Shown piece by piece: positions 1 to 20,000 of a stretch of 20,000 nucleotides of DNA (positions within the stretch are counted from its first letter, which is position 1; each line of letters begins with the position of its first letter). Source of the stretch: Psammoneis japonica (Eukaryota); assembly GCA_008632985.1 (NCBI GenBank), contig QPGO01000076.1, positions 354,903 through 374,902 of the forward strand, read 5' to 3'. A program made the position numbers and the translations under genes. The notes below the pieces were generated by a model. The model worked only from the letters and a program-made list of their open reading frames with translations. It was not told the DNA's origin and searched no databases.

Positions 1-2641
1 GGCGTGCTTTTCGTGTCGTCCTTAGCCACGCAATAAATCGAGAGCCAATAATGTGCCTTTTGCAGTGGGTTCTTATTCAAAGGTTCGCTTTCAGATGACT
101 TGTACTTGTCGGCTACTTCAACCTCGAGTACAAGACCCGCATCCCAACCAACGCTGTCAAATCGGCTGACCTCTCCGAGCGACCGATGCTTACGCTTGTT
201 TCTGATGTTGTCACTCTTTACGTGCCCCAAAGTCCGCCGAGTCTTGTACACGACATTGGCAGCATCAACAGAATCTCGGGGATCCGGAAGATACGCAGCA
301 TTGCTCGTAGACACCCCTACAAAATCACGAGGTAGTTGTGTCCAGCCAGCATAGTCATGAGACCTTATAGAGACGTTTTGAATGTAGTTTGGAAGATTGG
401 ACACATCGGTACCATTGTCAAAGCCAAAAAGCACATAGCCGTCGAACCATGGTGGAATAGACCATCACCGTGACTCTCACGATCTACTCTGGTTGTAGCA
501 GGATAATGAGGGATGGGGAATGGAGGGATGTGAGGATTCCGGACATAGCTGCACTGTTTGCGCTTACTCTATCGCTCCCTTCAGATGTGGTGCTGCAGTT
601 ACCGATAATGCAGCCGTAACAGTGAATCGTCCACCTATTGCAATGCGAAGAAACGAAAGCAGATGACATGGTCGAGACAAAATGCTTCCAAAGGCCAGCG
701 AACCAGCCTCGTCGGGATCTGATGCGTTGGAAACATCTTCAGCGCTTGCAGTTGTTGTCCGCATTCCGTCAACCGAGATAGTTTCACTATCAATGACGCA
801 TCCCGGTGTGATTTGCTTGCGGATTCCGATAAACCCTGGGACATCCGCTTCAATCGTGATGACTAAAGATCTTCTTCGCTTTCGTTCATCCGAGAGCACA
901 GCATTCACGGCAATGGAACCGGCTGGAGTGGGCACCGTGGCGCGAACTGAAGGATTCCGAGCTGAAACAAGGGCGTAGCAACGTACTCGGCATATCCAGG
1001 AAGCAGGGACTCTATGCCACCTAATACGTTCGATAGCCACGCTGTAACTCCGGAACTCCAGGGGTGCAGTACGATGGTCTAGTCGGACCCTCATCACCTT
1101 CCGACATGAATGAAGCCCATTCTGGTGAAAACAACTCCCAGAAACAACCCCGTCCAAGCTCGAGCATGGGCTCCCAACACAACTTGATAGAAGCAATGGC
1201 GTGATCCATCATATCAGCGTTCCCAAGCGCTTGAAGGATCCAGTATTGGTTAAAAGGAGAATGGGAACATATGTTGACAGAATCGTTTAGCGCATTGTGA
1301 AAGAAAACCTTGACATCTTCATCTGTTACGATCCGGCATTGATAGCGTTTGCAGCAGAATGAACTCCGAATCCCTAGGCCACTCTGGAACTTGCCTCAGG
1401 CGGTTTCCTAAATGAAGAGTGATTGCCTCATACTTCTTTGCTTCCGGCTCCATACCTGCGAGATGTAGGGATCGCGCAAGATCTCGACACGCCCTCACAA
1501 CAAGACCTGCAAATGCAAGATGAGCCTCTCGGTTGCACTCGTCGTGAACGGCATGGCCACACCACCCATTTCCTATTCGATCGTCCCACCCAAACCAGAA
1601 AATATCCAAATTTGGTTCAAGAAAGTCCTGTATTCTCTTGTTGAGAATCGACATGCAGTCTGGAGCAAACGTTCGAAAGCCAGCAACGTCACCAGATGCC
1701 ATGAACCAATCATTTACACTCATGGTCCAATAGATTGGATAAGCCATAATTTGTTGGTCTACCACATCATGCCCATGCACATCACCACTGTTGGTTTGAT
1801 TCAGCTCGTCTCTAATGAGCTCGTAAGAGCAAACGCCACCAGTGCCGCTGCCATTGTCGGATGACCGTCTCCTTGAATCGCATCACGATCCCCTCTGTCT
1901 ATTAGAATGGAATTGAAATCATTCTCCTCAATGTTGAGCCGAACACCATACGCACCAGTGTACCATACTCGGGAAAGGGCGTCATCGGACGCGTTAAAAG
2001 ATCCCGTGTATGGATGGCTTGACTTTGGCAACTAGAGTAATCTTTGTGATGTGCCATGGCTCTTGATTTAGGGGAGCATCAAAGCAAATCCAGGTGTATC
2101 GGACGCCCTCATAGAGTTCCTTATTCGTCTCGAGTCTGTAGGTTGAACGACCATACTTTGTGAGAGCTTGTGTCTTGCCGGATAAGGTCTTCTGAATTCT
2201 GAAATGGCTGCTGATACATTTCCAGTGAGATCGGGACTCTCAAATTCCAACCATGCGGCACGTTCGACACCCCAGTCGAGAAACAAACAACCCCTGCCCT
2301 TAATCGACATGTTTGATCTCGCCCATCACCAAGGAGTGACTCTGCACCCAAGACAAAATTTTGCTGGCCGTCTTCTAGTACTTGTAGCTTGCAGGGCGAT
2401 GAACTCTATAAATCTGCGGTGGCGCGTTATAGACCGAATTGTTCCATGTGTAGCGTACAAGCGGATCCCCACTGAACGGCTGCGGTGTCCCACACGAAGA
2501 ACAAAATCCATGCAAGTCCTCAAACGGTTCTGGTGCTTCACTACTTGCAGCTCCACAAAATGACCAATTTACGCATGAAAAGAGCACGACTGCTGAACAG
2601 ACGATTAACTCGAAACAGCGACTGGACCGCGACGATGCCAT
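1..2641 (-). pseudogene. GH78 alpha-L-rhamnosidase-like secreted glycoside hydrolase; frameshifted (pseudogene or uncorrected indels), 3' end beyond the left edge
   Basis: Minus-strand ORF fragments are collinear. Signal peptide (MASSRSSRCFELIVCSAVVLFSC), then LFLDWGVERAAWLEFES, YRLETNKELYEGVRY, YTGSFNASDDALSRVWYTGAYGVRLN..ILIDRGDR, GWDDR, SPFNQYWILQALG, CFWELFSPEW, SYC/HPWSSGVTAWLS and VPTPAGSIAV. A C-terminal DGYVLFGF frame stays open to base 1. Roughly ten or more frame changes are needed to join them. Confidence 0.75.
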
Positions 2642-2989
2642 TTCGCTTTATGTTTGTTTTTCCATCATAATTCCCTTGTGGCAACGGAGAAGCATGGAAC
2701 TGGATACACTGCGATGGATCATGCTGAGTTAGAAACTCGATCGCACTTGCCGACCGACAGACGAATTATTGCGTTCGTCCACCGTCCATCCGCGTGAGGA
2801 GGTCGCCTCTTTTCGCGCTCTTGCCTTTCTTCGCCACGACAACATTCAATGGCGGCAAGTGCATGTAGGTTTTCCCAACTAGCAGCGCCCGTGATGGACA
2901 ACACAAAACATACAGTGTAGGAGTACAAAGCAAAAAAAAGTGAGCGCTGATGAATCTGATGACCACATTTTCCCCAATTTGTCAAGGAT

Positions 2990-3130
2990 GTGAATAAATA
3001 AATACAAATTTGAATATATTGTTAATTTCACATCAATTAAAGGTTTATCAGGTAATAATAATTATTATTTATAGACGTTCCCGCCATTAACATAAATACT
3101 TTCTAAAAGCTGGATATGTATTATGAAATT
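2990..3130. promoter_or_regulatory. AT-rich island between divergently oriented genes (possible shared promoter region)
   Basis: Abrupt very AT-rich stretch (gaataaataaatacaaatttgaatatatt...ataataattattatttatag) between the GH78 start (2641, minus) and the glycosyltransferase start (3238, plus). Function is inferred from position only. Confidence 0.3.
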
Positions 3131-3237
3131 CAAAAAGCAAACAGTGGAGACAAAAACAACTTCACAAAAACAACAAAAATACCGATCAACCTCACAACAT
3201 ATCTTGATCTCATTCCATTTCAAAAGAGCCAAGCACC

Positions 3238-4619
3238 ATGGATCATTTGGGCTTACGCATGCTTATTGCTGCGGTGTGTTCCTTTCTTGTATTTACAAAC
3301 GCCATGTATTTCCTTGCCGGGACAGCAGCGGTTGAACGTGATGGTGAAGTGTCAAAACAAGATAAAACCGCCGCCAAGAAAACCAAAGGAACAAGAAGCG
3401 AGTCTTCTGACAATGACTTGAAACTCGTTATCTGTGCTCGTGTGCGGTACGTCAAAGAGCTACACGTAAATATAGCTGCGGCGCTAATTTGCTACGCTTT
3501 CAGAGTCCGATGTTCCTCACGTATATTTGTCCCGTTCTCGTCTATTTTATAAACAGAAACGAGGCCCCATATCTTGAAGAGTGGATCGAACATCACCGAA
3601 TGATTGGCTTTGACTCTTTTTTGCTGCTCAATCACGAAAGCTCGGATTCGACACAGTGTGTTTTAGACTCGTATGCAGAGCAAGGCATTGTGACTCGGCT
3701 TCCCGACGACATTGACAAGGACAGCTACCACAGTGGTGGAGAAAGCGCCGTCTTTACCTCATGTGCCAATCATTTGTTGAAACAAAAAGAGGCGAATCGG
3801 ACGTGGATGTTGACTCAAGATCCGGACGAATTTGTTTGGTTTAACGTAAGGTTTGGTGTTCCAACCATCAAGCATGCTGTGTGGTTGATGCTAAAATCCA
3901 ACAGTTTGACAAGGAGCGTGCGTATTCCTAGACTTACGTTTGGCGCTTCTGGTCAAGAGAAGTATGAAAATGAAATGGTGATGAAACGCTTTACTCGTCG
4001 TTTCGAGGTTAAGAATTGCCCTCGTGGTGGCAAGCACCAACAGCATCGACGATTGTTTAACAAAACCGCACCGAATTCGTACTGCGAAACGCACCATACT
4101 CGACATTCCTTTGACAATACCAAGAGTATGACTTTGGTGACAGAAATGGCACTGAAATGCCGTCGTCTTGAGACCAAGCGAAAAAAGACGAAAATGAGCA
4201 GAGCCAAGTGCCACAATCCTCACAGACACAAACTGGCCGATGATGTATCGACCAAAATCGCAACCTTTACCGACGGCAAACAAGAGGCTTCCGATCCAAG
4301 GTATCTTGATGAAAAGGTTGTTGGAGACGATATACAGATATTTCATTATAGGACCAAGAGTCGACAAGAATTTTATGAACGAACCTGTGCATCCGAATTC
4401 GTGGACAAGTTTCGTCGATGCAAGGGCTGCTCACCGGCGAGCTACTTTGACTTGTTCCAAACCTACGCCAACAACTACCAAGATGATCGAATGCTTCACT
4501 TTGCCCAAGCCCTTGAACAACAAATGGCATCTGAACCGAGTATCGTGTCTCATTGTGATACAAGGCCACGAAAAGTGTCTCGTCAATTCATAAAAAAGTG
4601 CTTGAAGCCGCAGAAATAG
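3238..4619 (+). CDS. Type II membrane glycosyltransferase, GT2-like/GT92 (DUF23) family; exons 3238-3446 and 3557-4619, about 423 aa
   Basis: N-terminal hydrophobic anchor (LRMLIAAVCSFLVFTNAMYFLAG). The GT..AG intron 3447-3556 joins CG+A to give ICARVRNEAPYLEEWIEHH..GFD.F, the typical GT2_4/GT92 start. DxD motif DPDEF and the late IFHYRTKSRQEF motif are present. Confidence 0.8.
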
Positions 4620-4790
4620 CGCGCCACGAGTAGTAGCATGATCGTCATTCCCTTTAGTTAGTAAGCTTGCTGTCCTTCGTCTTGGAGTACTATTTCTAAA
4701 GCAAGCAAGATGACACATTTTAGTATAAATTAAACTAAACCACGTTACGCCCTGCCATGTTTATGATACACCCGAAGTGAGAGGGGAGCC

Positions 4791-4960
4791 TCGCTCTACT
4801 CTACTCTCTACCGTACCGTAGCTAGTAGAGTAAAGGGTAGAGAATACCTTTAGCTACTAGCTAGTAGGATGGCCTAATAAGTACTAGCTAGAGTAGCTAG
4901 CTCTACTCTAGCTAGAGTAGAGACTAGCTAGCTAGGCTCTAGAGTAGATAGAGAGTTCTC
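4791..4960. repeat. TAG/CTA-rich low-complexity patch containing a 22-bp perfect palindrome (4901-4922)
   Basis: Built from ctag/agtag/ctact units. CTCTACTCTAGCTAGAGTAGAG is self-complementary, and 13-bp arms at 4884-4896 and 4903-4915 also pair. Confidence 0.8.
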
Positions 4961-5507
4961 GTTAGATGAGCTCATATCCTGAATTCGATTCGGGTTGGTC
5001 GGATAGATCGGGGTGATGTGTGAACGTTCCCATCCAAGCGCCGACAGACTTCAACTTGGCGTAGATTCTACGTGGAACCAATACTGACGCAAGTTGATGG
5101 AGCAGTGACGCGTGGAGCCGCACAAATTCGTAGAGTAGAAAAAACGACAAACGAAAAAAGCAACGAGTGATTGCTGCTGTTGTTCTTGAATCTCCTTTAT
5201 TTCTTCGAGAGAGCGCAACAACAAGTGTGACGTGAGCATCAAACTCTATTGCTGCTCCTTTGACCATTTAGTTTTAGATCTTGAATTAATTTTGTGGGTT
5301 AAATTACCGTGAATCCCCGACGTCTTTCATCTTTCGACGGTATGTACAGAAAACGGGTGTTTTTGTTTGATGGCTCGAGAAAGACGAGTGAAGCAGGAGA
5401 AAAAATCGGAGGCTGCTGAACTGAACGTGTTGAAACTCACTAGTTCTTTGTTCACTCATTTACGTTGTTGATGCTTGCAGTACGAAAGTAAATAATCACA
5501 TTACAAA

Positions 5508-8500
5508 ATGAAGTTTCACTCGGCAGCCCTCGCTACGTTGGTGGCCGCAACAGCTTCGAATGAAGTGGCTAGTTTCGCCATGCTACCGTCTCCTACAAAA
5601 ATGGGCAGTGCGTTTGTTCCACGCACAGTCCTTTCCGCTACAGTTTCGTCTACGCCTCCTCCTACTCGAGGATCCATGAGCATGTTTTCACTCGCGGGTG
5701 GTGGTATCGAAGAGCTTCAGACACTGGTCGACGCATCTCCCAAGGTGACAAAGCAAATTGTTGTGAAATCTCCAAAAATGTGGAAAATTGCAGGCCTGGC
5801 CACGATTCCAGTGTCTGCCGCCTTGGGCTTTGGATTGGTCCCCGCCTCGGGGATTGCAGCCAACACGGTAGGTGCCATGGTATCGGGTATTGCGGGCGCC
5901 GTGGGCAAGTCGAAAATGGATGAAATGGCAGAGACGGCTGCGAAACCGGCACTTGCGCAAGTTTTGATTGACAATGGTGTCGATGAGCCATCTGTTACAC
6001 ACGAGGCTGTCCTACAAGTCCAACAAGACTATGGAGTCTTGGAGGAAGACTTTACGGCCTTGTGCACAGACATTTACGCAAAATACCTATTGGGCATGGT
6101 GAAACACAATATGGAACCTAGCACACGGGAACTCAAGGAACTGGATAAGCTCAAGCAGTGTCTTGGCTTGGAGAATCTTGCCGTCGGTGAGGCCCATGCC
6201 GCTGCTGCGGCTGAATGGTACAGAACCACCACTCTTGTAACTCCCGAGGAAGAGTTGGACGACCCAGAGCATCCTGATCGTGTTGCCATGGACAAGATGC
6301 TGTTCCTCACGGAAGGAGTTTTGCGACAGGGAGGCGAGACACAAGAAGCGTTTACGTATGAAATGACTAGAGTGGCCAAGGCAATGAATCTTTCTCTGTT
6401 GACTGCAATGGATCATGTTTCGGACGTGACTGAACCGTTTTACATGAAGGCCCTCAAGTCTGTTCGGGCAAAGCTGGACAGCGACAAGGTTTCGCCAGAA
6501 ATGCTACAGCGTGCCCGCAACACCTTGGGCTTGTCGGAAAGTACAGCAAAAGACCTGCACATTAGTGCTCTCAACGACGATGTCAGAGAACTTTTAGGAA
6601 AAGTCGACAAGGATGGAAACGAGGTCAAGACCGAGGATATGGATGACTTGAAATTCTCACAAGATGCGATTGAGCGCGTAAGTTTGGTGCCTTGCATGTT
6701 CTTCGTTTCATACGTTGTGTATTGATATGTCCTTATTCTTTCGCCGTTTGGACTACTCTTTCTCTTACAGCTTGCAAGACTCTCCCAAGTTTTCGGATTG
6801 TCTGAAGCTGACGTTGAGTACGAAGTCACGGTTGAAGCGACGCCTCTATTCCAACAGACTGCTCTGGCTGCCATGAAGGACGTCCTGGCCGGAAGCAAGA
6901 CCCCCGATGAAGCCTGGACTCTATTGGAAAAACGCCGCGAGGAACTCTTGTTGATGGAGAGCAGCTCAAAGGATTTGTTGAGCTCCATGGTAATGCAGGC
7001 TCTTGGTGGTCCTCTCGAGGAAACCAACAAGTTTGCCAAGGTCAACAACGAGGCCGCGACCTATGAACACTTGTTGGAAGCGCTCGAGGCAAAGGAAGCT
7101 CTTATTGCTGTCTTGTCGAAAAGTGGCTTTGACGAGTTTGAAAAGTTTGACGAGACCTTTTGTGATCCCCGGAACAAAAATTCTGCTTGTGGATTCCTGG
7201 AAGACACGGAACGTCTCAAAATGTATAAGATCTTTTTGATCAGGACCGTACGTAAGAGCGAGGATGGTAAGCTCACCAAGGAAATGTACGATAAGGTCAT
7301 GGAGGTGAAGGGCTTGCTGGGAATTACCGATGCCGAAGCTGAGAATGAAGCCAGAACCTCCTTTGGACCTGAATTGCAAAAGGCGATGAAGACGGCCATG
7401 GCTGAGATTCTAGATGATTACACTCCAGAGCTTGCCAAAAACCTCAAGAAGAACATTGAGGAAGTAATGGACAGCTACAAGCTATCGACCCAGTTTTTGG
7501 AAGAAATTGGTAGTGGTTTGTACGCAAAGGCTGTTGCTATTGTTAGCGAGAAGGTACGTGCACAAGATTTCCTGGAGAGCACATACATTTTTTCTGAGTT
7601 GTCGTTGGGTTTTGCTCACATGCGCTCATGTTCGAATATATAGACCCCGGCTGGGGTTCCAACGGAAGAGCAGAACGCTGCTCTTGATGCCTTGCGATCG
7701 TTGTTTCAGTTGGAGAAGGAGGACACCTACGCCGCTCACATTAATTCCTTCGCCCCGGTATACAAAAAGAGCGTTTTGGAATCCATGGGCAGCACGGGCG
7801 TGATTCTCCCTGAGTTCAGAAAGCCGTTGGAAGAGCTCCGTGACAGACTTGGTGTTTCAGAAGAATCGACAAAGAGTATTTTCTTGGATGCAGTCCGAGA
7901 AAAGATGGTGCCAATGGTTGAATGGATTGCAAGTGAGCTGGAGCGAACTATGCTTACGCAACAACAACTCTCACATCGACGCAAGAAGGATATGGGCGAA
8001 GATCTCTTCCAAACTGGCAAGGGCGCAACGGTAAGGATGTTGAAGCGTTCACTTGCAGAGATTTTACGACTGTTAGATATACCCATTAACGTTCGTCGCC
8101 CTTTATTCTTTCTTCTTCTTGACAGGGGGTTCTTGGTCTTGGCGCGGAGGCAAACATTATGAGTGATATTATGAATCTTGTTGACTTCTACTTGGAGAAT
8201 GATATTTGCGAGCAAAAGGAGGTTGGAACAAAGACTTTCGAAAAGAGAATCCCTGCCGAGGAGGAGGACGGCGAGGACGAAATTGTCGAGGAAGAAGTGC
8301 CCGTGTTTGAAACGACTTATCCTGTGACGGCTCTCGGCGAAGATTGCATTGACAATGAGATTGCCGAATTGCTTTATCGTCAGTTTGTAGTAGGAGGCTT
8401 CACAACGCAGGGTCCACAGGGAGAGCGATACGAGGGTGCCAAGGCCACCTTTGGTGGAATCTTGGGATTGACGAGCGAAAAGATGGAAGAGATTGGCAGC

Positions 8501-9190
8501 AACATTGGAAGCACGGTTTACGACAACTTTGTAACCAACGCCATGAAGACCAAGGGTGAAATGGACCAACAGGACTTGATGTTCTTGGCCAATATCCAGT
8601 CCAAACTCGGTCTCTCGTCAGAGCAGGGCGAGAAAATGTTGATGGCTTCTCAACGAAAGGTTCTGAGCGAAGAAGTCGATGCGCTCATGGACGAGCCTAC
8701 CCCACAAGGCGTCAAGGCCTTCCGTGAAAAGTGCAATTCCATTGGCATGAGTCTTTCGGAGGACGTTGGTATTTCCAAGACGCGCTTGTCCCGCATGTTC
8801 GAAGCCGAAGTCATTCCTCCACTCAAGTCGGGTGAGGTTTCTACCGAGAATGGCGGTGAGTTGGTGCGAGAAGTCCAAGAGAGTCTTGGACTAGAGCAAG
8901 AAGAAACAGAGCGATTGTTTGAAGGCATGTTGATGAAACTCTCCAGCACGGCGTATGACTTGATCAAGGGTGAATTGATGCGTGGCCGTCAAGACACAGC
9001 GGTTGAACCAATCAAAGAATTGGTCCGCTATGCCGCCTTTGTGGAGGGCGATCTTGACTTGGACGTGCCGGAAGCACTTGCGAACCAAATTTACAACGTA
9101 TACGATGCACTGGACTTTAGTGACCAAGACAGCGAAACCGTAGAAGCAAACAAGGAGTTGCTCAAAACCACGCTGGGACTGTCATCATGA
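5508..9190 (+). CDS. TIC110: Tic110-like plastid inner-envelope protein-import component; exons 5508-6677, 6771-7553, 7644-8030, 8126-9190, about 1134 aa
   Basis: Three phase-0 GT-AG introns (93, 90, 95 bp) join the four ORFs in frame. The bipartite presequence has a signal peptide ending VAS-FAM (ASAFAP-like) and a Ser/Thr-rich transit peptide. Two N-proximal hydrophobic helices are followed by a long acidic helical region with repeated 'L...LGL' units, matching Tic110 architecture. Confidence 0.75.
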
Positions 9191-9818
9191 AACTAAGGGG
9201 GAGAACAGTACTTTATTTTGTAGAGAGATTAGCAAGAGTTTTAATAGCTTATATCTGTGATTTATATAGTTTACTAGGCCTGTACACTGCAGTTTTAGGG
9301 CTATTCTTGCCCGTCCGCGCCCATGTGAAACCTTACCATTTTTACCAATGATGTGGTTTAGTAAGAGCAAAAGATTGACTCGGACGACTGAAACTGCGAC
9401 ATGCGCGACCGCCGATTGATAATGTACGGCAAACTACGTAGATTTCTACGGTGGACGATCAAGTCTGAGCTTTTCGTTCTCATTTCTCATTCTGCAAACG
9501 TCTTATTGTTTCTTGTTGTTGGTTGTTACCTTCGTTGAGCATCCCCATAAGCGCAACGATACACTTATTCTATCGCCATTGATAACATAAGCCTTTTTGG
9601 GTGATACGCGGGGTCTGCTTTTTGTTTACTTTTGTGAATGCGAAAATTACCGAAAGCTTGGGAATACCGGTACAGCTATCACGGACAAGAACTCACGTAA
9701 AAGTCTGAGTTAAAGAAGATCGGATCAAACACCTCGGTTTCTTACGTGCAGAGAGAGCGCTTTATTGAACGATTCTGTCTTTATCTGATATAGAGACAGA
9801 GACGCGGAGAGTACTAAA

Positions 9819-10268
9819 ATGAGTTTTTCCAATCATCCTCTGCAACCACCCGCGAAAAGACCTCGAAGCACGCACTCTTTTCATCCCAACAAGAACAACA
9901 CGTCCAAGCGCCCTCGAGATTCCGCTGCCGTCGAAGACGACCCGAGCCACTCATTCAAGAGAATGCGTATCGAAGAATATGCTTCTGTTACAGCAGTACG
10001 AGATGATGAACACAACATGATGATTGACGAAAACGAAGAGCAGCACCACCGACAACAAGTTCCGGGACAAGACACGAGCTCGGATCATAGCAAGCCTGCA
10101 TCAACAAAGGTAGAAGAACCCAATAAAACGCCCGTAAAGGATTACTCCCAAGTCAATCACGTGTTGGGTAGTTTGCACCAAGAACGAATGCGACGACAAG
10201 AGCGAGGAGATGCGAAAACAAAGAAGCGTCACGTCAAGAAGCTGCCCAGTAATTCTCAATTGTATTGA
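9819..10268 (+). CDS. Small hypothetical, probably nuclear, low-complexity protein (149 aa)
   Basis: Single ATG-TGA ORF with NLS-like clusters (PAKRPR, KRPR, FKRMRI, KTKKRHVKK) and a helical motif DYSQVNHVLGSLHQERMRR. Confidence 0.6.
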   Translation: MSFSNHPLQPPAKRPRSTHSFHPNKNNTSKRPRDSAAVEDDPSHSFKRMRIEEYASVTAVRDDEHNMMIDENEEQHHRQQVPGQDTSSDHSKPASTKVEEPNKTPVKDYSQVNHVLGSLHQERMRRQERGDAKTKKRHVKKLPSNSQLY

Positions 10269-10801
10269 ACGCCATTACGGAAGAACGCGCAAGCACGCCG
10301 CTTTGAATACGGTAGCTATAGTCTAGAGACATCTTCAAACTGTACGTAGCGACTACCTGATAGGCCTAGAGTCAGATATGTAGTTTCAGATCTGCCAGAA
10401 AAAGGTTTTGCGAAAGGATATGCCAGCTGTTGCGGATGAACTTTCCGGAGGATACTGATCACAGCACGCTCTCTAGTTGCGGTGACTCTTGAGAGACTTG
10501 CATTTAGGCCGGCTTTTATTTACCAAGAAGCACGTTTGAGCGCTCGAATGATGTCTCTCTAGTCAGCACGCATAAGTAGCCCGGTGTTGAGTGACATGGT
10601 CGTGCGCAACTTCGAATGCCAGGGCCAGCGAAATGTTATAAGGATACAGCTTGAGAACGCAAGAAGAAATGATCTTTGCTTTTATGTATTGTGTTTCTGT
10701 GTATAACATGACTAGCATTGTTCTTGCGCAGTGTTTATTCATTTTCTCATTCTCCCTTTCACCATGCAGTGATGGCCTTTGCAATCACACATGGCAATCT
10801 C

Positions 10802-11985
10802 TCAAAAGTCCTCAGTGACTGTAATGCAGCGAGTGTTCACAGCATCCTTTAAGTAGAAGAGGAAGTCGTCACACTCGTTCTCTGCAACATTCTCAGTCCC
10901 ATCATTGGAGCACAGCGATAAATCCAAGGTGTTGATGTCGTCGTACAGAAAAGTGCCCGCTGCGCCCCCCTCAAACGCCATGTTCTGCTCAAACACACTC
11001 TCCGCAATAGTCAATCGAGGCATTTGCCCTATCGTAGTCGCCAAATACCCACCGCCGAAACTCGCAGTGTTCTCTTCAAAGGATGTTTTGTATATGGAAA
11101 TACGCTGTCCCGCCGTGAGAGATGTCGGTGAGGTAAGGGTTGTCAGGAGACCTCCTCCGCCAGTGCCAGAAGCGTTGTTACCAAAAAACTCACTAGACGT
11201 AATGACAACATCCAAGGCATCCTCCACATACACACCTCCACCTCCTGGAGCATCGCCTTCGGCAAACCTGCTCTTGTCTACCAAAACACCGCCGGTTGTC
11301 CGAATAAACAAGTTTCCACCACTTAATTGGTGTTGGCCTCTTTCAAATCTACATTCTAAAATACGATGCGTACCGCTGGAGATGATTTCGACATTTCCTC
11401 CGCCTCGTCCTTCCCCAGTGCTACCTCCTCGAATGTCCATCTTGGCCATTGTAAAGTCTTGACCCGTTACGACAAGATTCCGATCCGAAGACGTTGTGCT
11501 GCTCTCTATGATGCAATTCTCCGATTCGCAGCACAAGTAAATGCCAGACTGAGTAACACGGACGGCGAAAGGAGTAGTGATTGTGTTTGATCCGCAGAGA
11601 GAAACAACCGAATTTGGGCCTGCTCTATCCAGCTCCGTCTGAAGGCTCGCGAAGTTCGAGACACAAGCTCCCGTTGTTGGCGTGCAGGCCGGGACAGGAG
11701 TTGGAGCGGCGGAGGTCCACAATTTGGGACTGATACACTCATCATTCCAACATTCTCTAAGAGTCTTTGCCAAAAGACATCGTTTTCGTCATGGTTGATA
11801 TCCCTCTCGTCATCCTGTTCGAAAGTGTTACGGAGCATGGAAGAAACAGCTTTCTTTCCACTGTTCCGCCTTGAAGGGATGTTGTTTTGTCGCATGTCAC
11901 CATCACTGAGCGCCAAGATCATCCCCAGGAGAAGCCTTACCGGTAAGCAAAGAGCAAACCCCGTCATTGTAGCGGAATGTTGCAT
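10802..11985 (-). CDS. Secreted right-handed beta-helix (pectin-lyase-like/POMP-type GG..FxxN repeat) protein; one frameshift near 11715-11725
   Basis: Signal peptide and pro-region (FWQRLLENVGMMS) lie in ORF 11506-12027. The frame then switches to ORF 10802-11773: SAAPTPVP linker, Cys-rich cap, and repeats GGGNV, GGNLF, GGGGVY, FFGNNA..GGGGL, FEENTASFGGG, FEQNMAFEGGA. Start is ATG 11985 or 11967. Confidence 0.65.
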
Positions 11986-12304
11986 GTGATGTTGCGATCT
12001 GGATTGTTCGCAGAAAAATGTGAGCAAGCGATACCTTTTCAGTTGAAATTCAAAATATCGTTGTTAAGTACACATTTTATATGTACCGTATATTAGCAAT
12101 TTCTATTTCAATTTAATAAAGAATTAATAATTATATTAACGGTTGATAATCATACAGTCATGACCATTGATCCTCGCACCACTTTAGAGCGAGGATGGTT
12201 GCAGTAAACGACGAGGGATGGAGGCGGGGGCATCCCTCCTTCTTCCTTCTCAGTTGGTAAGCTCATGCACTTGGAAACCACATGCAGTGAGAAAGTGGTG
12301 CATA

Positions 12305-13051
12305 CGTGTGAGTTCATGTTGGGAAATCCTCTCTCAGGTTTGTGGGGTGAGAAAAAAGTGGCGCAGAGCAGGAGACAGCAGCAAGAGCACACACACCACC
12401 ACCACCACAACAGGAGCACACTTCCAAAGTGTTGTGTGTGTGGGCAGTTGTGTCATCCAAGAAGTGCATCACAACCAACAAAATCTTTTTGGATGGTGGT
12501 GTGCACCACACCTTGCAGTGCTGCACAAAATGCCACCAAAAATTCTTGCCTTGTTGTTTGAAGTGCTCATCATCATTCCTTCATCTGACTCAGCCCACTC
12601 TCTGTGGTCAAAATCCTTTGACAACTTGAGGCCCTGCCCTTTTGGCTTGGTCAGTCTTGCAAGGGACAATTGTGCTGGTGGCCTCACAGAGTCACATGGA
12701 GCAAAAGATCATGGGGGGAGGGGGGGGCGGGCAGGCTGCTCCTGGTTGTGGGAAGCGTTGGTCGTGGGGGGGAAGGAGGGCTCATCAACGGCCACCACTG
12801 CTGCCGTGTGTGCTGCGGCATCCTGCAAAAAACACTTTCCTTCCAGTTTGTGATGCACTCTGGTCCCCCCCCCAACCCACTGACAGGGTGAATCCTTTGA
12901 CGACATCGTGGGTGACTTGCTCCTCATGTGCCACAGAGCTTCTGTGTGTGTGTGTGTTGGAACCTTCCAGCAGTGCAGCAAAAGGCAGCATCTGCAGTGG
13001 CCAAAAATCCCCCCCCCCCCCTCTTTTCCCTCTTCTCTTTCTTCTTGTCTT
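12305..13051. other. TpA-free, CpG-poor, CA/TG-rich non-coding flank immediately upstream of the 5' LTR
   Basis: No TA dinucleotide found from 12305 to 13389. Only about 9 CpG in this 750 bp. Runs of cacacac/gtgtgtg and G/C homopolymers. No credible ORF. Confidence 0.8.
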
Positions 13052-13249
13052 TGTCAGCCTGTCTGTCTGCATGTCACGTGATGGACAGACTGGATGTGGA
13101 TGATGGCTGGACCATTCAGACAGACGAGAGCAGATCTCTCTGAGATCTGCTTCTCACTTTCTCATCTGCTGGTGCTCGTGTCATCACAGTCCTGGCACTT
13201 CAGGGAGTCTTTCATGCCTCTGTCACCATTGACCTTCGGCATTCTGTCA
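13052..13249 (+). repeat. 5' LTR (about 198 bp, TG...CA)
   Basis: 13052-13097 matches 19955-20000 at 41 of 46 nt. The right end is inferred from ...CTGTCA followed by a PBS-like sequence, because the full 3' LTR is outside the window. Confidence 0.75.
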
Positions 13250-13261
13250 GGTCATGGCCGC
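13250..13261 (+). promoter_or_regulatory. Putative primer-binding site (degenerate)
   Basis: GGTCATGGCC directly after the inferred LTR end resembles the GGTTATGGGCCC half-tRNAi-Met PBS type of copia, allowing for a TA->CA change. The match is imperfect. Confidence 0.35.
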
Positions 13262-13427
13262 GTGCTGTGCCACAGACCTGTGCGCCAAGCTTTCTGTTTC
13301 GATTCATTTCTTTTGTGAGCCGATCGAGCGAGCCTCATCGTCTGATCTGACAACTTTTTGTCTCGCTTTCCCGGCATTTTTCATGACCGTAGAAACACAC
13401 CAGATTTCTGCGCGTGCATGACCAAAA

Positions 13428-15387
13428 ATGGCTCCACCAACTAAAACCATGGTGTCTTCCGACCCCACAAAGCCCACTCTTCCGTCCATTGCAGAGATCT
13501 GCTGTGAGTTCGAGGCACACACAACGATGCCACATCTACATGGCTGCCTGGGTGCGATTTGTGCGGACTCCACAACTGATCTCGACCCGTTCTTTGACGA
13601 TCCAGAGCGCGTGCAACCCAAGAAAGATTTTGCGGACATGCTTCGTGATCACTTCATCCACGAACGGAAAAGTTGCTCTTCAGAGCTCCCTCGTCCCTTG
13701 CAACCATGGATTCCGTCACTGTGTTGATGCATCCAATTGCATCATCCTCAACGATGGCACCCTTTTCATCATGAGCTTGACTCCTGACCAGAAAATGTTG
13801 TTCAGGGAACCTCCTGCATGTCACGACGACTCTCCCCCTGGGATGCGAGCATGGTGCCAAAATTTCCAACGTCATGCCTTTGATTCAGGATGCCACATGC
13901 ATCCATTGTGGTGTTTTGCTGAGGACCACGGTGGTGTGAAAGGTTTCGAGATCGGAAACGGCAAGGATGATGACTTGCCTCAATGCATGTGCGTCCACTG
14001 CAAGGAAGCTGAGAGCTCTCTCCACAAAATCTCATCCAAGTCGGGTGTGTTCCCCAAGAACAGCAAATGTCATCGGATTGTTGCATCATGCTGCGGCAAT
14101 GGACACAAGGCTCTCAAGCAGATTGTCTGTGAGAATCATCCTGCTTTCGACCACGATGCTGCTGGACTGGTTGACTCCCATCCTGTCCAAGGCAATCGAT
14201 CATTGACAGACTGCCACATGATCTTCAATGATTTCCCACAGCTGCATGCCTGCATTTTTGATGCGGACTCTACGTTGAACGATCCACGGGAGATGACTGT
14301 CTTTGTCAAGAACACCAAGCACTCCAAGTTCTCATCTCGTGCCACCAGAGATGAGACGCGTTCCAGCCCTAGGTGGGAGCTCGTAGCACTGACGTGTGAC
14401 AACAATAATTTTTATCATCCGTCGTATGTTTCGTACGTAGATTTCTACGTGTGATATTTAAAAAAAAATTGTCCAGACTCGCTGTTTTGCGAAGCCCCAG
14501 ACGTTTTATATAACAAATTTATAGAAACAATAATGCGCCAGTTACATTCTTCAATGTCTGAAGAATGTAACTGGCTAAGTAAAAAATGATGTACTTCAAT
14601 CATGTGCGAGTTTGTGCGTTCGCAAAATTGCCTCATTTTCTGTTGGCGATCATTGACATTTTAATTACCGTATAATTTTACTACGGAGCTCGCACGTAGA
14701 AGTCTGCGGGCCCAATGTCACACGGATTCCCACCTACGTCTGGAACGCGTCATGAACGGAAGTCTCCAGCTGTGCAGAAGAAGTGCACAGATGCACAGAT
14801 TGTCGAGACTCTCTCTGATTTCCTCTGCCAACCGGACAGTCCATCCTTTGCCACTCGTGCGACGCAATCCAATCCCCGCCGCACATGGAATCGAGCAGCT
14901 GAGGATGCGCGACGCACGGCTGTCAATGTCAGTGCTCTCCAGATCCCTGAGACATCTCTTCCTGAACCAGTCGATGACTCCACCACTGAAGACACTGGTG
15001 CGGAATCTCCACCTCTGGACACCTTTGATGCTTTTTGTGACGAATTGCATGAACTCGAGATCCCTTCTACGGACGAAGATCGACTTCTGCACCATGCATG
15101 TTTGGCTTCAGTTTGCAAACTGAAAGTTGCTCCGAATGAAGCCTCCAAGAAACCATGTCTTGTCTGCTCCGGAGAGCATTTGTTTGATGACTGTCCGGCC
15201 CTGAAGAACAACCCACACATCAAGGGATTTCACATCCATTTTTGTCAATTCTTAAAGAGGGAAGCAGCTGTGCGTGCTTCTGAGTTCCAAGGATCCAAGG
15301 TCTGCTCCCACCTCATCATGAAAACCTGAAAATCCGCCCAGATCTGGTGCTCCGCCCTCGGATTTTCAATCGGGCCGTCGCAGCTAG
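13428..15387 (+). pseudogene. gag: gag of the copia element, interrupted by a MITE and frameshifts
   Basis: ORF pieces 13428-, 13414- and 14715- are collinear. Removing the MITE plus one TSD restores an in-frame ..SRATRDERKSPAVQKK... Zinc knuckle CLVCSGEHLFDDC at about 15156-15194. A plausible end is ..SDFQSGRRS-TAG at 15387. Confidence 0.75.
14355..14751. mobile_element. Non-autonomous TIR DNA transposon (MITE), 397 bp, 24-bp TIRs, 4-bp ATGA target-site duplication
   Basis: Left TIR GACGCGTTCCAGCCCTAGGTGGGA (14355-14378) matches the reverse complement of 14728-14751 (GACGCGTTCCAGACGTAGGTGGGA) at 22 of 24. ATGA sits at 14351-14354 and 14752-14755. The interior is AT-rich and non-coding, and excision restores the gag frame. 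Confidence 0.92.
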
Positions 15388-15447
15388 TTTCGGATCTCCG
15401 ACACTGCCCGTTTTTCTCCTCACCGAGACAAGACTGATGTCAGCGGG

Positions 15448-18400
15448 ATGACCTTGAAAGAGGGACCAACCGTCTCGTCATCTGCCACTGAAGTGCCTCT
15501 TTCTTCACAGATTGACATGGATGCCACCCCTTCCACTGCCACGAAGGTGTCATTTGATGCCAGCAAGTTACCAGATGATGACCCTGCTCCCATGGAAGAC
15601 ACCGTCGATGCTGCTTGTGCTCCGGATCCTTTGGAACAGGGGAGGGAAGACCCAGAAACACCGGATTTTGAGGAACACATTGACCTCACCTGCAATGACA
15701 TGGCTGTTGAAGATGGTTTTGCTGCCATCAATTCTGTTCGTGTCACTCCGATCGATCCACACCAAGCGAGTCACTCTCCTGAGCCGGAACTGTTGCGCTC
15801 AACTTGTTCTGTCAATGGGGCAAATTTTGCTCCGAATGAGTGTTGTGCTCAGTTGGATGCTGGTGCTGATGTTGCATGTGCAGCGACCGTGACCTTCTCC
15901 ACCGACACCAAGAATTCACTCCGTCCCATCCCTGTCCCCTTGCTGTCAATCCGGCCCTTGGCCATCAAGCTGTCCCAGTTGGGTTCGGATGTCTTCGCAT
16001 CCCTGCAGAGAACTCTGATGGATGTGTTGAGGTTCGTGCCTGCTGCCACCCACAGATCCAATCTACGTTGGTTGATGAGCGACTCCTCCTTCGTCAAAAT
16101 GGCCCTCGTCGTGCAGACCACAATGTTGATTGTGTCCTCAAGTTCCATGATCTCGGCACCTGCAAGTTTGTTGCACGACACCGATTGCACAAGAATCAGG
16201 ACATCATCATTCATGGGAAATTGATCAATGGCAAATGCTTTGCTCACCCTCTCATCCTCCCAGAATCTAATGATGAATTGGGTGCATCTGTTGAGCGCCT
16301 CAAGACCAGTGACCCTTCCTTTGCTGATGAGTGTGAAGCAGTCTCTGTGCACATGATTGAAACATGTGACACCTGCCAACATGACGCTCTTCGTGCTGAA
16401 TGCAAGTTGATCCCCCGAGTGCATCAAGATGTTCCTTTTGAAGAGCATGCAGAGAAGAATGTCCCTGTCCAATCTCTCAAGGCTGACACGGAATGCCTTT
16501 CATGGCATCAGCGACTTGGTCATCCGAGTGATCACTGCCTTTGTCATGCCCATGAACACGGTGTCCCCAAGTTTGCCCACGGAACTTCTCCTCTCGACAC
16601 TTGTCCCACATGCACACAAGCAAAGCAGACAAAGGAACCTGCTGGTCCGAACACTGCTCTTGCTGCCACCCAACCCTGCCAAGGTCTTGCGGTTGATTTT
16701 TCTTTCTCTGGCCTGCGGTCCAAGAACTCGGAGCGCACCAAAGACTGTGTTGGATTGAATGGCGAGACTTGTTGGATCACCATCTACGATCATAAAACGA
16801 AGCATCTCCACCGTCCAAGGCAACCCCTCTGAATTGGCTTCGCCACTTTCTGGAAGAGCACTCACCAAAATGTCCAGACAAATGTGTGTTTGTGGATCAA
16901 GGAGGTGAATTGCATCAAAACCCAGAGGTTCGGTGACTTTTCGAGGATGACTTTCACCGCGCAATTTGTCCTGCGGGAAAAGATGCTTCAAACCAGAGGT
17001 GGCCCAGTGGAACGCAGTCATTTGACTGTTGCTGATGCCATCCGGGCGATGCTCATTGGTGCCAATTTGCCCACAAAATTCTGGCCCTGTGCTTTTCATC
17101 ATTTCACTCGAATCAACAACGCTGTGCCATCCCGCGGACAACCTGCTGCTCCGATTGCTCTTGCTGAGCTGGTCGAAAGGATGATTTCAAGAACTTTCGC
17201 ATGTTTGGTTGCCAAGTGTGGGTGCGTGCGTCGAATCACCGCCCAGCAAAATTTCGGTCTGTCTCTTGCAAGGGTGTTTTCTTGGGCCATCTTCCAGACA
17301 CCACCAAGAACATCCTTTGGTGTGACACCGAGACGTCGCGTGTCAAGCTTGCCAAGCACATTCATCATGATGAGGGCATGAATGATCTACCCCACGACTC
17401 TCTTCCCCTGAATGTGGTTCACTTGGAGCATGCTCAAGATGGCAAGGCTTCACCTGCCAAGACTGAAGAATCTACGATGGACGAGCTCCACTTTCATGGG
17501 AATCCTTTTGCCAAGACCATTGCGCATACGATGAAGGGGCCGTTTGCTGATCCGACATTTGGAATTTCATTGACTGCGGATGATCTCCATCAGCAAGTGT
17601 TTGTCTCTGATGTCAAGCATGGTTCTCCTGCTGCGCGTCTTTTCTGTTCTTTGAAGGCAACCTGCAACAAGATCAAGGGTGCGTGTGTCGCATTGATTGA
17701 TGATCACCCTGTCTTTGTGGCAGAGGAGGCCATCAAACGTTTTCGACAAGTCTGTGATTCTGGCAAGACTCACTTTGAAATCGAGTTTGCGCCGGAACGT
17801 CAACTGGACTCCCAGGCTCTACAACGTGCCCTGATGGAACACAATGTCTGTGCACCGACTCCTGACCCTGATGACGAACATGTCCCGGAAATTGCCAATG
17901 CTGACATGCATGCTGTTGCTGCCATCCGTCACCCTGATGTTGATTTTTCCGATGTGGACGATGATGACATCCCTCCGTTGATCCATGTCGACTGCGACAA
18001 TGGTGTGGTCAACATCTGCACCATTTCATCTCATGCCATTGCTCCGGAGGAACAAGCGTCAGGTGCTTTCACTCGCCATTGTCTCAAGAAGCTGGGCACC
18101 TGGCCCGAATGGCATGTGGGTGAATTCAAACAACTTGACCAATTCCATGAGTTGGGGATGTTTGGTGCACCGATTGAATGTCCAAAGGATGCCACAGTCC
18201 TTTGTCCACATTGGCAACATGATCTCAAGCATGATGGCACGCGACGATCTTGACAATGCTGCGATGGATCTCCTTGTGCTGCGTCAATCCTCCATTGTCT
18301 TCACTCAACCCACTCCTCTTGTGTGGAACAACCTGTCCAACGCATGTTTTTTGCCCTTGCTGCGACTGTGAGCTACCCTGTGTTTGGTGGTGATGCTCAT

Positions 18401-19780
18401 GATGCCTGTGCACACTCTCCACGACCGTCACACCCCGTCTGTGTTGCTGTTGACGAAGCATGCGCGACTTGGCACAAGGCTCGGTTTGGCATTGATTTGG
18501 ATGGGACCATGGTGCTTCCGATGCAACATGCACTTCAGGGACACCCAGAAGCCAGCGTGCTCTGGGAGATGCACATCAACGGCATTTTGTCGATGTGAAT
18601 CCACTTTTTCGCAACACCGCTCATGACAAATGCATCTGTTCTGCTGCTTTTGAGGGACACAAGATCTTGCTCCTCCATCAGGTTGATGACTTCTCCCTTG
18701 CGTGTCCTGAAGAGTCCCTTGCGATCAAGACACACGACAAGATTGGCAAAGCTCTTGAATTGGAATCGGAAACCTCCCTGCCTTTCAAGTGTCTTGGCGT
18801 GATTGAAGAGTTCAATGGTGTGGATGTTCATCAACATGATGACTCTGTTGGCATTGCTGTTCACAGCCATGTTGATCGGGTTTGCACCTCGCATGGATGG
18901 TCGACACCGACGGAAGAGGAACTCGACGATGACTGCAAGGCTGCGCCAATCCCGGTTGACTCTTTCGTGAACTGTGCACTGCTGTTGGTCCAGCTGAAGG
19001 AACCCCGGAACATGCAGAGTTACAACAAGCTGCTGGTTTTGGGTGCCGCACTCCACTTGGTGAATTGTTGTGTGCGCATGTTGTCTGTCGATTGGATGTT
19101 GGACATGCCATCACTGCTCTCTCCAAGTTCTCTGCCTGTCCTGCTTTGGTTCACTGTGATGCACTCAAGGGAGCATGCAAGTGCCTTCGACGCACCAAGC
19201 ATTGGGAACTGAACTGCAAGAAGCCCACCCGAGACTCAAGACTGCCCGCCTGCCCCTTCGAACGTCTCACTCCGGACCCGACCCTACCATCGTTCCCTTT
19301 CCCGGAACATGATCATCAACTTGTTGCCTTTTTGGATGCTGCATGTGGCAATGACCTCCGTAACCGTCGCTCTGTGACTGGCTGTGCTTGCATGTTAGCC
19401 GGTGCTGCACATCCTTTTGATGCAAGACCCAATCGGCGACTGCTGCGAGTTCTGCGGAAGCTGAATTCTGCGCTGCTGGCACCACTGCCAAGCATGTCCT
19501 TTACCTTCGTCACATCCCACATGAACCAGGCTTCTCTCAGACGGAGCCAACCCCATTGCACATTGACAACGAATCGGCAATCAAGATCGTCAATCATTTG
19601 ATCCCGACCGAGCGATCCCGTCACGTTGAGGTCCAGTTTTTTGCGATCCAAAAATGGAAGGAAGTGGGCAAATTGTCACAAGACATGTCCCTGGCATTGT
19701 CAACCCTGCAATGACCTTGCCAAGGCCCTTGGCTGGGTGCCACATGCCCGCCACGCTCGACGCATGATGGGACTGCTGTT
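15448..19780 (+). pseudogene. pol: pol (protease, GAG-pre-integrase, integrase, RT, RNase H), inactivated by transitions, stops and frameshifts
   Basis: Protease AQLDAGA (~15850); WHQRLGHPS..CPTC (~16500-16615); integrase VER..IRAML..KFWPCAF; FGCQVWV..GVFLGH; RT region SCVEQP, ALQGHPEA..WE, HQVDDF, FNGVDV, RLDVGHAI..LSKF; RNase H FLDAACGND..RRSVTG and NDLAKALGW. Boundaries are approximate. Confidence 0.9.
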
Positions 19781-19945
19781 GATGTTTTTTCCGCGGTGGC
19801 CTCCCTGCTGCACATTGCCCCCTTGTTTGATGGCGCATTGGGCATGGACACTTGTCGTGTCCTGTGTCTGGTCTCTCTGTTTCCTTACATCATCCCTGTT
19901 CTTTGGTTTGATCTGCCCATTCTCTATGTTGAGACATTGCAGATC

Positions 19946-19954
19946 AGGGGAGGG
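19946..19954 (+). promoter_or_regulatory. Polypurine tract
   Basis: AGGGGAGGG immediately precedes the TG of the 3' LTR. Confidence 0.85.
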
Positions 19955-20000
19955 TGTCAGCCTGTCTGTCTGCATGTCGTACGATGGACAGACTGGATGC
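19955..20000 (+). repeat. 3' LTR (first 46 bp; truncated by the window)
   Basis: TGTCAGCCTGTCTGTCTGCATGTC... is a direct repeat of 13052 onward. Confidence 0.9.

Follow-up and report, generated by a model that had tools for sequence, protein, structure and literature searches.

A 747-nt flank without a single TA step, located directly upstream of a copia element in a diatom genome, was identified as the left end of an erased block of about 4.2 kb, in which TA and CG were converted to TG and CA and in which host DNA was altered as well. The block was probably a silent region that was mutated mostly before the copia arrived and that later absorbed the element. The underlying mutation process is little known; it is of the kind recently described in Bigelowiella natans and is encountered here with near-complete erasure, CpG decay and action on host DNA. 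The analysed window is the whole stretch of 20,000 nt (G000:C77:354903-374902), the end of which is also the end of contig C77. Contig C64 is a 99.1% identical allele of C77 and runs further past the end of the window. The coordinates of the features are presented in Table 1.

Table 1. Features of the window and of the erased block, in window positions
Feature	Position	Strand	Basis or remark
Tic110 gene, context	5496..9190	+	related proteins with a named organism come from diatoms
Un-erased reference copy of the host segment; tandem duplicate inside the right block end at C64:397010-396670	10148..10470	.	polarises the changes
Beta-helix (PF13229) gene, approximate extent	10802..11990	-	not erased
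Left block edge, adjoining the beta-helix gene's upstream region	12154..12304	.	TA thins over ~150 bp
TA-free, CG-poor flank, left end of the ~4.2-kb erased block	12305..13051	.	composition, allelic contig C64
Old low-copy repeated piece within the flank	12496..12735	.	two further copies, both likewise erased
TSD, left copy, GTCTT, 5 bp	13047..13051	+	right copy directly after the 3' LTR on C64
5' LTR of the copia, 198 bp, 0 TA, 4 CG	13052..13249	+
Internal region, broken Ty1/copia-type element	13250..19954	+	gag_pre-integrase and retroviral SH3-like Pfam matches
MITE-like insert in the copia, 397 bp, 24-bp terminal inverted repeats	14355..14751	.	very high copy number
3' LTR start, truncated where contig C77 ends	19955..20000	+	complete on C64

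Composition, extent and copy number of the erased block

The flank (53% GC) contained 0 TA and 10 CG (o/e 0.19), together with 78 CA (o/e 1.79) and 83 TG (o/e 1.68). By the o/e values of window positions 1-12150, 24.5 TA (Poisson P ~2e-11) and 52 CG (P ~1e-12) would be expected in it. The closest TA steps were found at 12303 and 13390, thus the TA-free run spans the entire 5' LTR. The internal region of the copia, which belongs to a multi-copy family, has also lost nearly all of its TA: 24 TA (o/e 0.07) and 270 CG (o/e 0.65) were counted in the 6309 nt of the interior outside the MITE-like insert. The first-pass annotation had described the flank as free of TA, poor in CpG and rich in CA/TG, more extremely so than the element, with the 5' LTR beginning at 13052. 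This description was borne out, the difference from the element being greatest for CG, and the LTR start agrees with the 5-bp TSD.

On C64, the low-TA zone to the right of the 3' LTR extends over 3385 bp, with 11 TA and 18 CG in 3431 nt. With the copia removed, the block consists of 747 bp on the left and ~3.4 kb on the right and occupies the whole interval between two tandem beta-helix genes. The gene in the window and its tandem paralogue on C64 form the left and right bounds of the block, respectively, and neither of them is erased. At the left edge, the last dense TA was located at 12153, followed by TA at 12185, 12205, 12258 and 12303. A (CT)n run of ~40 bp at C64 ~396700-396655 lies exactly at the right edge and is missing from the un-erased duplicate. 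Many further low-TA blocks were detected on C64 and C24, each with normal DNA alongside. A TA-free block likewise accompanies the second beta-helix copy (C64 ~394700-393400), beginning ~150 bp upstream of the promoter-side sequence that the two copies have in common; no homology between this block and 12305-13051 was found.

The read depth was 42-49 in the flank and 59-70 in the right part of the block, comparable with ~60 for single-copy DNA, while the depths of the copia interior and the MITE-like insert were 1300-3100 and ~80,000, respectively. The block is therefore not a high-copy repeat. A genome search for copies of the flank, as had been proposed, recovered a piece of ~200 bp at C64:381494-381673 (82%) and C24:427820-427913 (79%), whereas the rest of the flank is low-copy. 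The earlier suggestion that the copia had inserted into an older repeat is accordingly ruled out for a high-copy repeat, both by the single-copy depth and by the three known copies of this piece. Much of the block has a collinear older copy 25-40 kb away on C64, which is interrupted by other insertions and is erased too; the transversion divergence between the block and its main paralogues was 4-5%. This second block copy is interrupted at C64:381372-372802 by an insert of ~8.5 kb that carries very long inverted repeats (1005 + 1407 bp, 95%).

Transition-tolerant DNA searches with tiles of the flank against the surrounding contig sequence recovered only the known piece, and the tile at the left block edge scored weakly (150 versus 94 for the shuffled control). 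No Pfam family was detected above the cut-off in the 3 + 22 ORFs of the flank and block. A protein search of the genome with the flank gave one extra weak match, which was the copia LTR in another frame. The sole match among 1.84 billion representative proteins was rejected, being a tandem-repeat ORF that scored 24 bits in the pairwise comparison.

Several further features lie in the vicinity of the block. The divergence between the alleles falls sharply near 10500, from ~28 substitutions in 9430-10502 to 12 in the remaining 9.5 kb. Between window 9318-9414 and C64 417516-410828, C64 has ~6.7 kb that is absent from C77 and comprises a 3.9-kb TA/CG-free block as well as a repeat-rich stretch (internal spacing of ~144 bp). 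As both ends carry similar short sequences, C77 may have undergone a deletion here. At the other extreme of composition from the erased block, window 4790-4960 is rich in TA and of low complexity, with palindromes and a tandem unit of 31 bp.

Direction and rates of change in paralogues and LTRs

No empty allele for 12305-13051 was found: the allelic contig C64 carries the copia as well, and none of 15 of the 36 contig joints in run X1 skips the copia, although contigs cannot show absence. The direction of change was read from a tandem duplicate of window 10148-12148 that begins within the right-hand end of the block at a distance of 3.1 kb from the copia and whose erased part lies 3.1-3.4 kb away. 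Within the initial ~320 nt of this duplicate, 1 of 15 TA was kept (7 CA, 5 TG, 2 other), and all 20 CG were lost (9 CA, 7 TG, 4 other). The gene region of the same duplication outside the block kept 33 of 43 TA and 52 of 67 CG, and the intergenic controls 21 of 30 TA and 10 of 14 CG. The difference between the block (filtered counts of 1/14 TA and 0/17 CG) and the intergenic controls was significant by the Fisher test for both TA (P 2e-4) and CG (P 2e-5). With a second un-erased paralogue, C64:365690-365230, as the reference, the block keeps 0/8 TA and 2/15 CG. In the two right-part stretches together, 1/22 TA and 2/32 CG survive, and most of the lost ones became CA/TG. Going outward across the right edge, TA was kept at 1/15, then 5/12 and then 4/4 sites, thus the edge fades over ~200 bp.

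A genome search with the right part of the block found the host segment only at the tandem twin. The segment duplicated into the block corresponds to the 3' part of ORF 9819-10268 (149 aa); as this ORF has no homologue at E <= 0.001, the segment is referred to as host DNA and not as a proven gene.

The copia family was sampled with 20 copies fetched from 41 listed LTR matches among 164 candidates. The counts were made on 16 copies having both LTRs and a matching TSD (one TSD with a single mismatch), while L073, L074, L087 and L089 were left out due to the missing complete 3' LTR or matching TSD. In the 16 LTR pairs (3113 nt), 268 transitions were found along with 9 transversions, some of which may be end-alignment errors. 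TA/CG/CA/TG steps accounted for 256 of the 268 transitions, with 12 located elsewhere, which indicates that dating by LTR divergence overstates age in this genome. At 91 sites, one LTR reads CA and the other TG.

In the comparison of 33 LTRs with a TA-retaining LTR, 41/553 TA (the rest including 196 CA and 307 TG) and 151/196 CG were kept, the counts not being independent owing to shared ancestry. Of the lost TA, 503/512 now read CA or TG. The TA-retaining state is seen in L082 (G000:C59:205381-198177), whose 5' LTR has 17 TA and adjoins normal DNA, the remainder of the copy being erased, thus the edge of the domain runs inside this copy. In its 3' LTR, 14 of the 17 TA were lost (6 CA, 8 TG), with 6 CG present in each LTR. 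The loss of TA is about 10 times faster than that of CG. At 13076-13078 in the 5' LTR of the studied element, the alleles differ at two adjacent positions, and one allele has CG where the 3' LTR has TA; such TA>CG differences are rare elsewhere (4/553 in the family LTRs).

In pairs of erased paralogues, including those of the flank itself, double transitions were observed at 38/340 YpR steps compared with 8/336, 6/353 and 2/404 in the other classes. The excess at YpR points to independent erasure of shared ancestral TA/CG sites. The first-pass claim that the process had hit chromosomal DNA is thereby upheld, with the LTR pairs giving independent CA and TG outcomes and only the block-internal copy of the duplicated host segment being erased. 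The proposed decay of both TA and CG to TG/CA was likewise confirmed by the host duplicate and the paralogues, though TA decays ~10 times faster.

Age of the block relative to the copia element

The survival of CG was 2/32 in the block versus 6/11 in the element's own LTRs (Fisher P 0.0017), and 151/196 in the family LTRs. If CpG decays at the same rate in the flank as in the element, the CpG exposure of the block would be roughly 5-10 times that of the copia. By this CpG clock, the block was probably mutated long before the copia arrived. The CG content at this locus was 1.3 per 100 nt on the left, 0.5 on the right and 4.4 inside the copia; the corresponding values for the 16 copies were 4.1-5.1 inside and 0.3-4.8 in the low-TA flanks (median 2.7, n=29). 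The left flank was dated by its composition and its contiguity with the right part, since both alleles carry the copia and the paralogues are erased, leaving no ancestral state to read.

The following course of events is proposed. Parts of the block were demonstrably duplicated while still rich in TA and CG, and each copy was erased separately. The TA and CG of the block went to TG/CA on both strands, including the host DNA 3.1-3.4 kb from the copia, as evidenced by the polarised duplicate. The copia inserted at this site, as marked by the 5-bp TSD, and then evidently lost its own TA in place while most of its CG was kept. The block itself would have been under mutation long before the insertion, with ~5-10 times the exposure of the copia. 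Taken jointly, the separate erasure of the duplicates, the TA/CG loss, the insertion and the older exposure form an account that we regard as likely. The first silencing of the block might have been caused by an old repeat that is now unrecognisable, or by the duplication itself.

The MITE-like insert, which is bordered by a 4-bp ATGA repeat and has copies at C64:384241-384635 (98%) and C64:375213-375607 (90%), retains 29 TA and 26 CG. It is a recent insert that has so far escaped erasure, which indicates only that the erasure is not instant. In the copia interior, 4 of the 7 allele differences are CpG transitions, thus the CpG decay is still running.

The opposite order of events is unlikely. 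In that case, the copia would have entered normal intergenic DNA and nucleated silencing, with the erasure spreading 0.75 kb to the left and 3.4 kb to the right; such spreading would also have to stop at the two beta-helix genes and to involve a faster CpG decay in the flanks than inside the element. Consistent with this, every one of the 16 family copies lacks normal DNA on at least one side, and a low-TA zone of at least 363 bp was present in 28 of the 32 flanks (193 bp in one and <50 bp in three). This pattern fits the targeting of old blocks or persistence within them, but also a certain amount of halo formation. The host DNA inside the block is demonstrably altered, the flank is low-copy, and fungal RIP is described to leak at least 930 bp into single-copy DNA (PMC2973834).

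The CG survival in the block (2/32) compared with the family LTRs and with the element's own LTRs speaks against spreading, as does the complete CG loss 3.1-3.4 kb away from the copia. The two LTRs of this element differ by 0 transversions in 196 nt, which indicates that it is young. The TA-erased LTRs L075 5' and L079 3' meet normal DNA within 26 and 46 bp, respectively, so that two of the three halo-free flanks adjoin LTRs that are themselves erased; an erased copia thus need not make a halo. Moreover, the collinear second block copy on C64, which other insertions interrupt, has likewise been erased. The ~750-bp spread from the LTR put forward in the first-pass annotation is therefore probably not correct, considering the 3.4 kb on the other side, the much greater CpG loss than in the copia and the LTRs adjoining normal DNA. 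Of the two alternatives raised there, action on older DNA is favoured, while spreading from the element is not supported as the main cause. Searches with the flanks of L034, L010, L028, L082 and L017/L099 yielded neither an empty allele nor an un-erased paralogue of the part next to the LTR; the LTR-adjacent flank of L082 and the outer ~860 bp of the L017 flank proved to be other repeats.

A very improbable alternative is that the flank derives from an older mobile element whose RNA or cDNA was edited prior to integration, or from foreign DNA with an originally low TA content. Such an origin would be compatible with the recurrence of a piece of the flank at two other sites and with the ancestral state of the flank not being readable. 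However, CA and TG are equally enriched in the flank (78 and 83), which indicates that both strands were hit, the paralogues resolved the same sites independently, and host DNA within the block was erased. The ORFs of the flank and block lacked Pfam matches above the cut-off. Given the polarised host duplicate, this origin is largely refuted.

An origin of the TA-free flank in chance, low complexity or assembly error has practically no probability and is already refuted: G-runs, C-runs and short (CA)/(GT) runs do occur in it, but no tandem array was found in 12305-13051, zero TA has P ~2e-11, the second haplotype on C64 has zero substitutions across the flank, and one read-derived contig of run X1, possibly the source sample and hence not independent, spans the flank with 0 other letters and 1 gap.

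Candidate mechanism and known systems

In the favoured reading of an older silent block, the loss of CG would be due to the deamination of methylated CpG in silenced chromatin. The loss of CpG via the deamination of 5mC is established chemistry. In the host duplicate, 16 of the 20 lost CG read TG or CA, and the genome gave 27 profile matches to C5-methylase (PF00145). Several of the C5-methylase matches cluster on G000:C297 and C10, some of them with internal stops.

The loss of TA may, more tentatively, be attributed to a TadA/ADAT-type deaminase that would convert adenine to inosine in DNA, be recruited to silent chromatin and prefer T-A-pyrimidine on the edited strand. The effect of the neighbouring bases on TA outside the copia family was determined from 237 low-TA and 186 normal 500-nt windows. 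The relative survival was 0 for ATAT (0/1359 sites), 0.01 for ATAC, 0.22 for CTAA and 0.36 for TTAA. At single LTR sites, the changed strand usually reads T-A-pyrimidine, best with A in front; for example, ATAC became TG in 30/33 LTRs and GTAT became CA in 30/33. The motif of N6-methyladenine is ApT, and N6-methyladenine at ApT was rejected as the cause since the non-ApT A was changed at ATAC in 30/33 LTRs. Three TadA-like deaminase loci (G000 C38:7368-7679, C79:88506-88676 and C26:119851-120054) were detected among the 7 of 9 PF00383 matches that were scanned, their presence alone being uninformative as to the erasure process. To our knowledge, TadA-like genes are expected in any eukaryote.

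Error-prone repair synthesis, such as Pol eta-like gap filling during T:G mismatch repair at methylated CpG, is an unlikely source of the TA loss, although it is compatible with all the other steps, including CpG deamination. Pol eta has an A>G bias at WA motifs. The common boundaries of TA and CG loss and the C5-methylase genes in the genome are in agreement with such repair synthesis. In contrast, AA is hardly touched, with at most 12/268 LTR-pair transitions outside the TA/CG/CA/TG steps, and the strand choice tracks T-A-pyrimidine. The ~10-fold faster loss of TA than of CG, illustrated by the LTR pair with 14/17 TA lost and 6 CG in each LTR, does not favour it either.

With the deaminase as the cause of the TA loss, it is possible that diatoms carry a natural DNA adenine editor guided by silent chromatin and not by sequence or foreign origin. 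Such an editor would rewrite T-A-pyrimidine on both strands throughout a domain, host DNA included, up to the nearest working gene, and would strip new transposons of ~90% of their TpA before a quarter of the CpG decays. The locus provides before/after pairs for a regional process in a diatom, where host DNA was changed kilobases from a transposon and the change stops within ~200 bp. Used together, the rates of TA and CG loss allow the relative ages of nested insertions to be ranked. An enzyme, if one lies behind the process, would amount to a natural DNA adenine editor.

Fungal RIP is tied to the sexual cycle and depends on a RID-type methyltransferase. As described for RIP, the transitions observed here are dinucleotide-specific, affect both strands and occur in repeat-rich blocks with a gradient into single-copy DNA (PMC2973834). 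The outward gradient of kept TA at the right edge (1/15, 5/12, 4/4) resembles the reported leakage of RIP (PMC2973834). The direction is the opposite: RIP converts CpA/TpG to TpA (PMC2973834), whereas here TpA was lost and CA and TG were gained. RIP acts on duplicated DNA, while at this locus 10148-10470 is intact versus its erased duplicate, and both beta-helix copies are intact. Duplication alone therefore does not look sufficient, although the intact copies may be too diverged or under selection.

In Phaeodactylum tricornutum, DNMT5-dependent CG methylation has been described with 75 of 85 long LTR-copia elements as targets, and spreading or proximity effects are mentioned (PMC9998398). This methylation is a known basis for the CpG>TpG/CpA decay in silenced diatom DNA (PMC9998398) but leaves the TpA loss unaccounted for. 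TadA and TadA-derived adenine base editors are described to convert A>G in the U/T-A-C context, with the UACG motif (PMC8052359). This context resembles the T-A-pyrimidine strand preference found here, the likeness of the motif being a lead and not a test. TadA is a tRNA enzyme and the base editors are engineered (PMC8052359).

A literature search with few subscription papers in reach gave no diatom report of such TpA loss, and a TpA-specific A>G chromosomal mutator was found only in a preprint on B. natans, which is the closest published case. According to this preprint, TpA hypermutation of integrated NCLDV and virophage DNA was measured in mutation-accumulation lines, with a rate ~1000-fold above background in some lines only (Mettrop et al., 2026, bioRxiv 10.64898/2026.01.13.699255). 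TpA-depleted clusters were linked to transposon and virus domains, and an ADAT2-like DNA adenosine deaminase was proposed, but not shown, as the cause (bioRxiv 10.64898/2026.01.13.699255).

Similarly to the description of B. natans, A:T>G:C changes are confined to TpA, giving TpG/CpA (503/512 in the LTRs and 12/14 in the host duplicate). As there, integrated chromosomal DNA was affected on both strands, as seen here from the 91 CA/TG double sites and the host duplicate erased in one copy. In both cases the effect is regional with normal DNA adjoining; here, the block edges fade over ~150-200 bp. Unlike B. natans, a chlorarachniophyte of the Rhizaria, the host here is a diatom, i.e., a stramenopile. 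The described targets in B. natans are viral DNA, and those found here are a copia family (foreign-type) and duplicated host DNA. The TpA o/e reported for the NCLDV region of B. natans is 0.45, while the erasure here is nearly complete, with o/e of 0-0.07. The B. natans rate was measured in living lines, and the footprint alone is seen here. Here, the TpA loss comes with CpG decay, has a sharp edge, extends to host DNA and depends on the neighbouring bases; in the main text of the preprint, the words diatom, spread, flank and CpG are absent. If the editor is indeed guided by chromatin, the B. natans phenomenon would extend to a second eukaryotic supergroup and would represent a general genome defence with a direction opposite to that of RIP.
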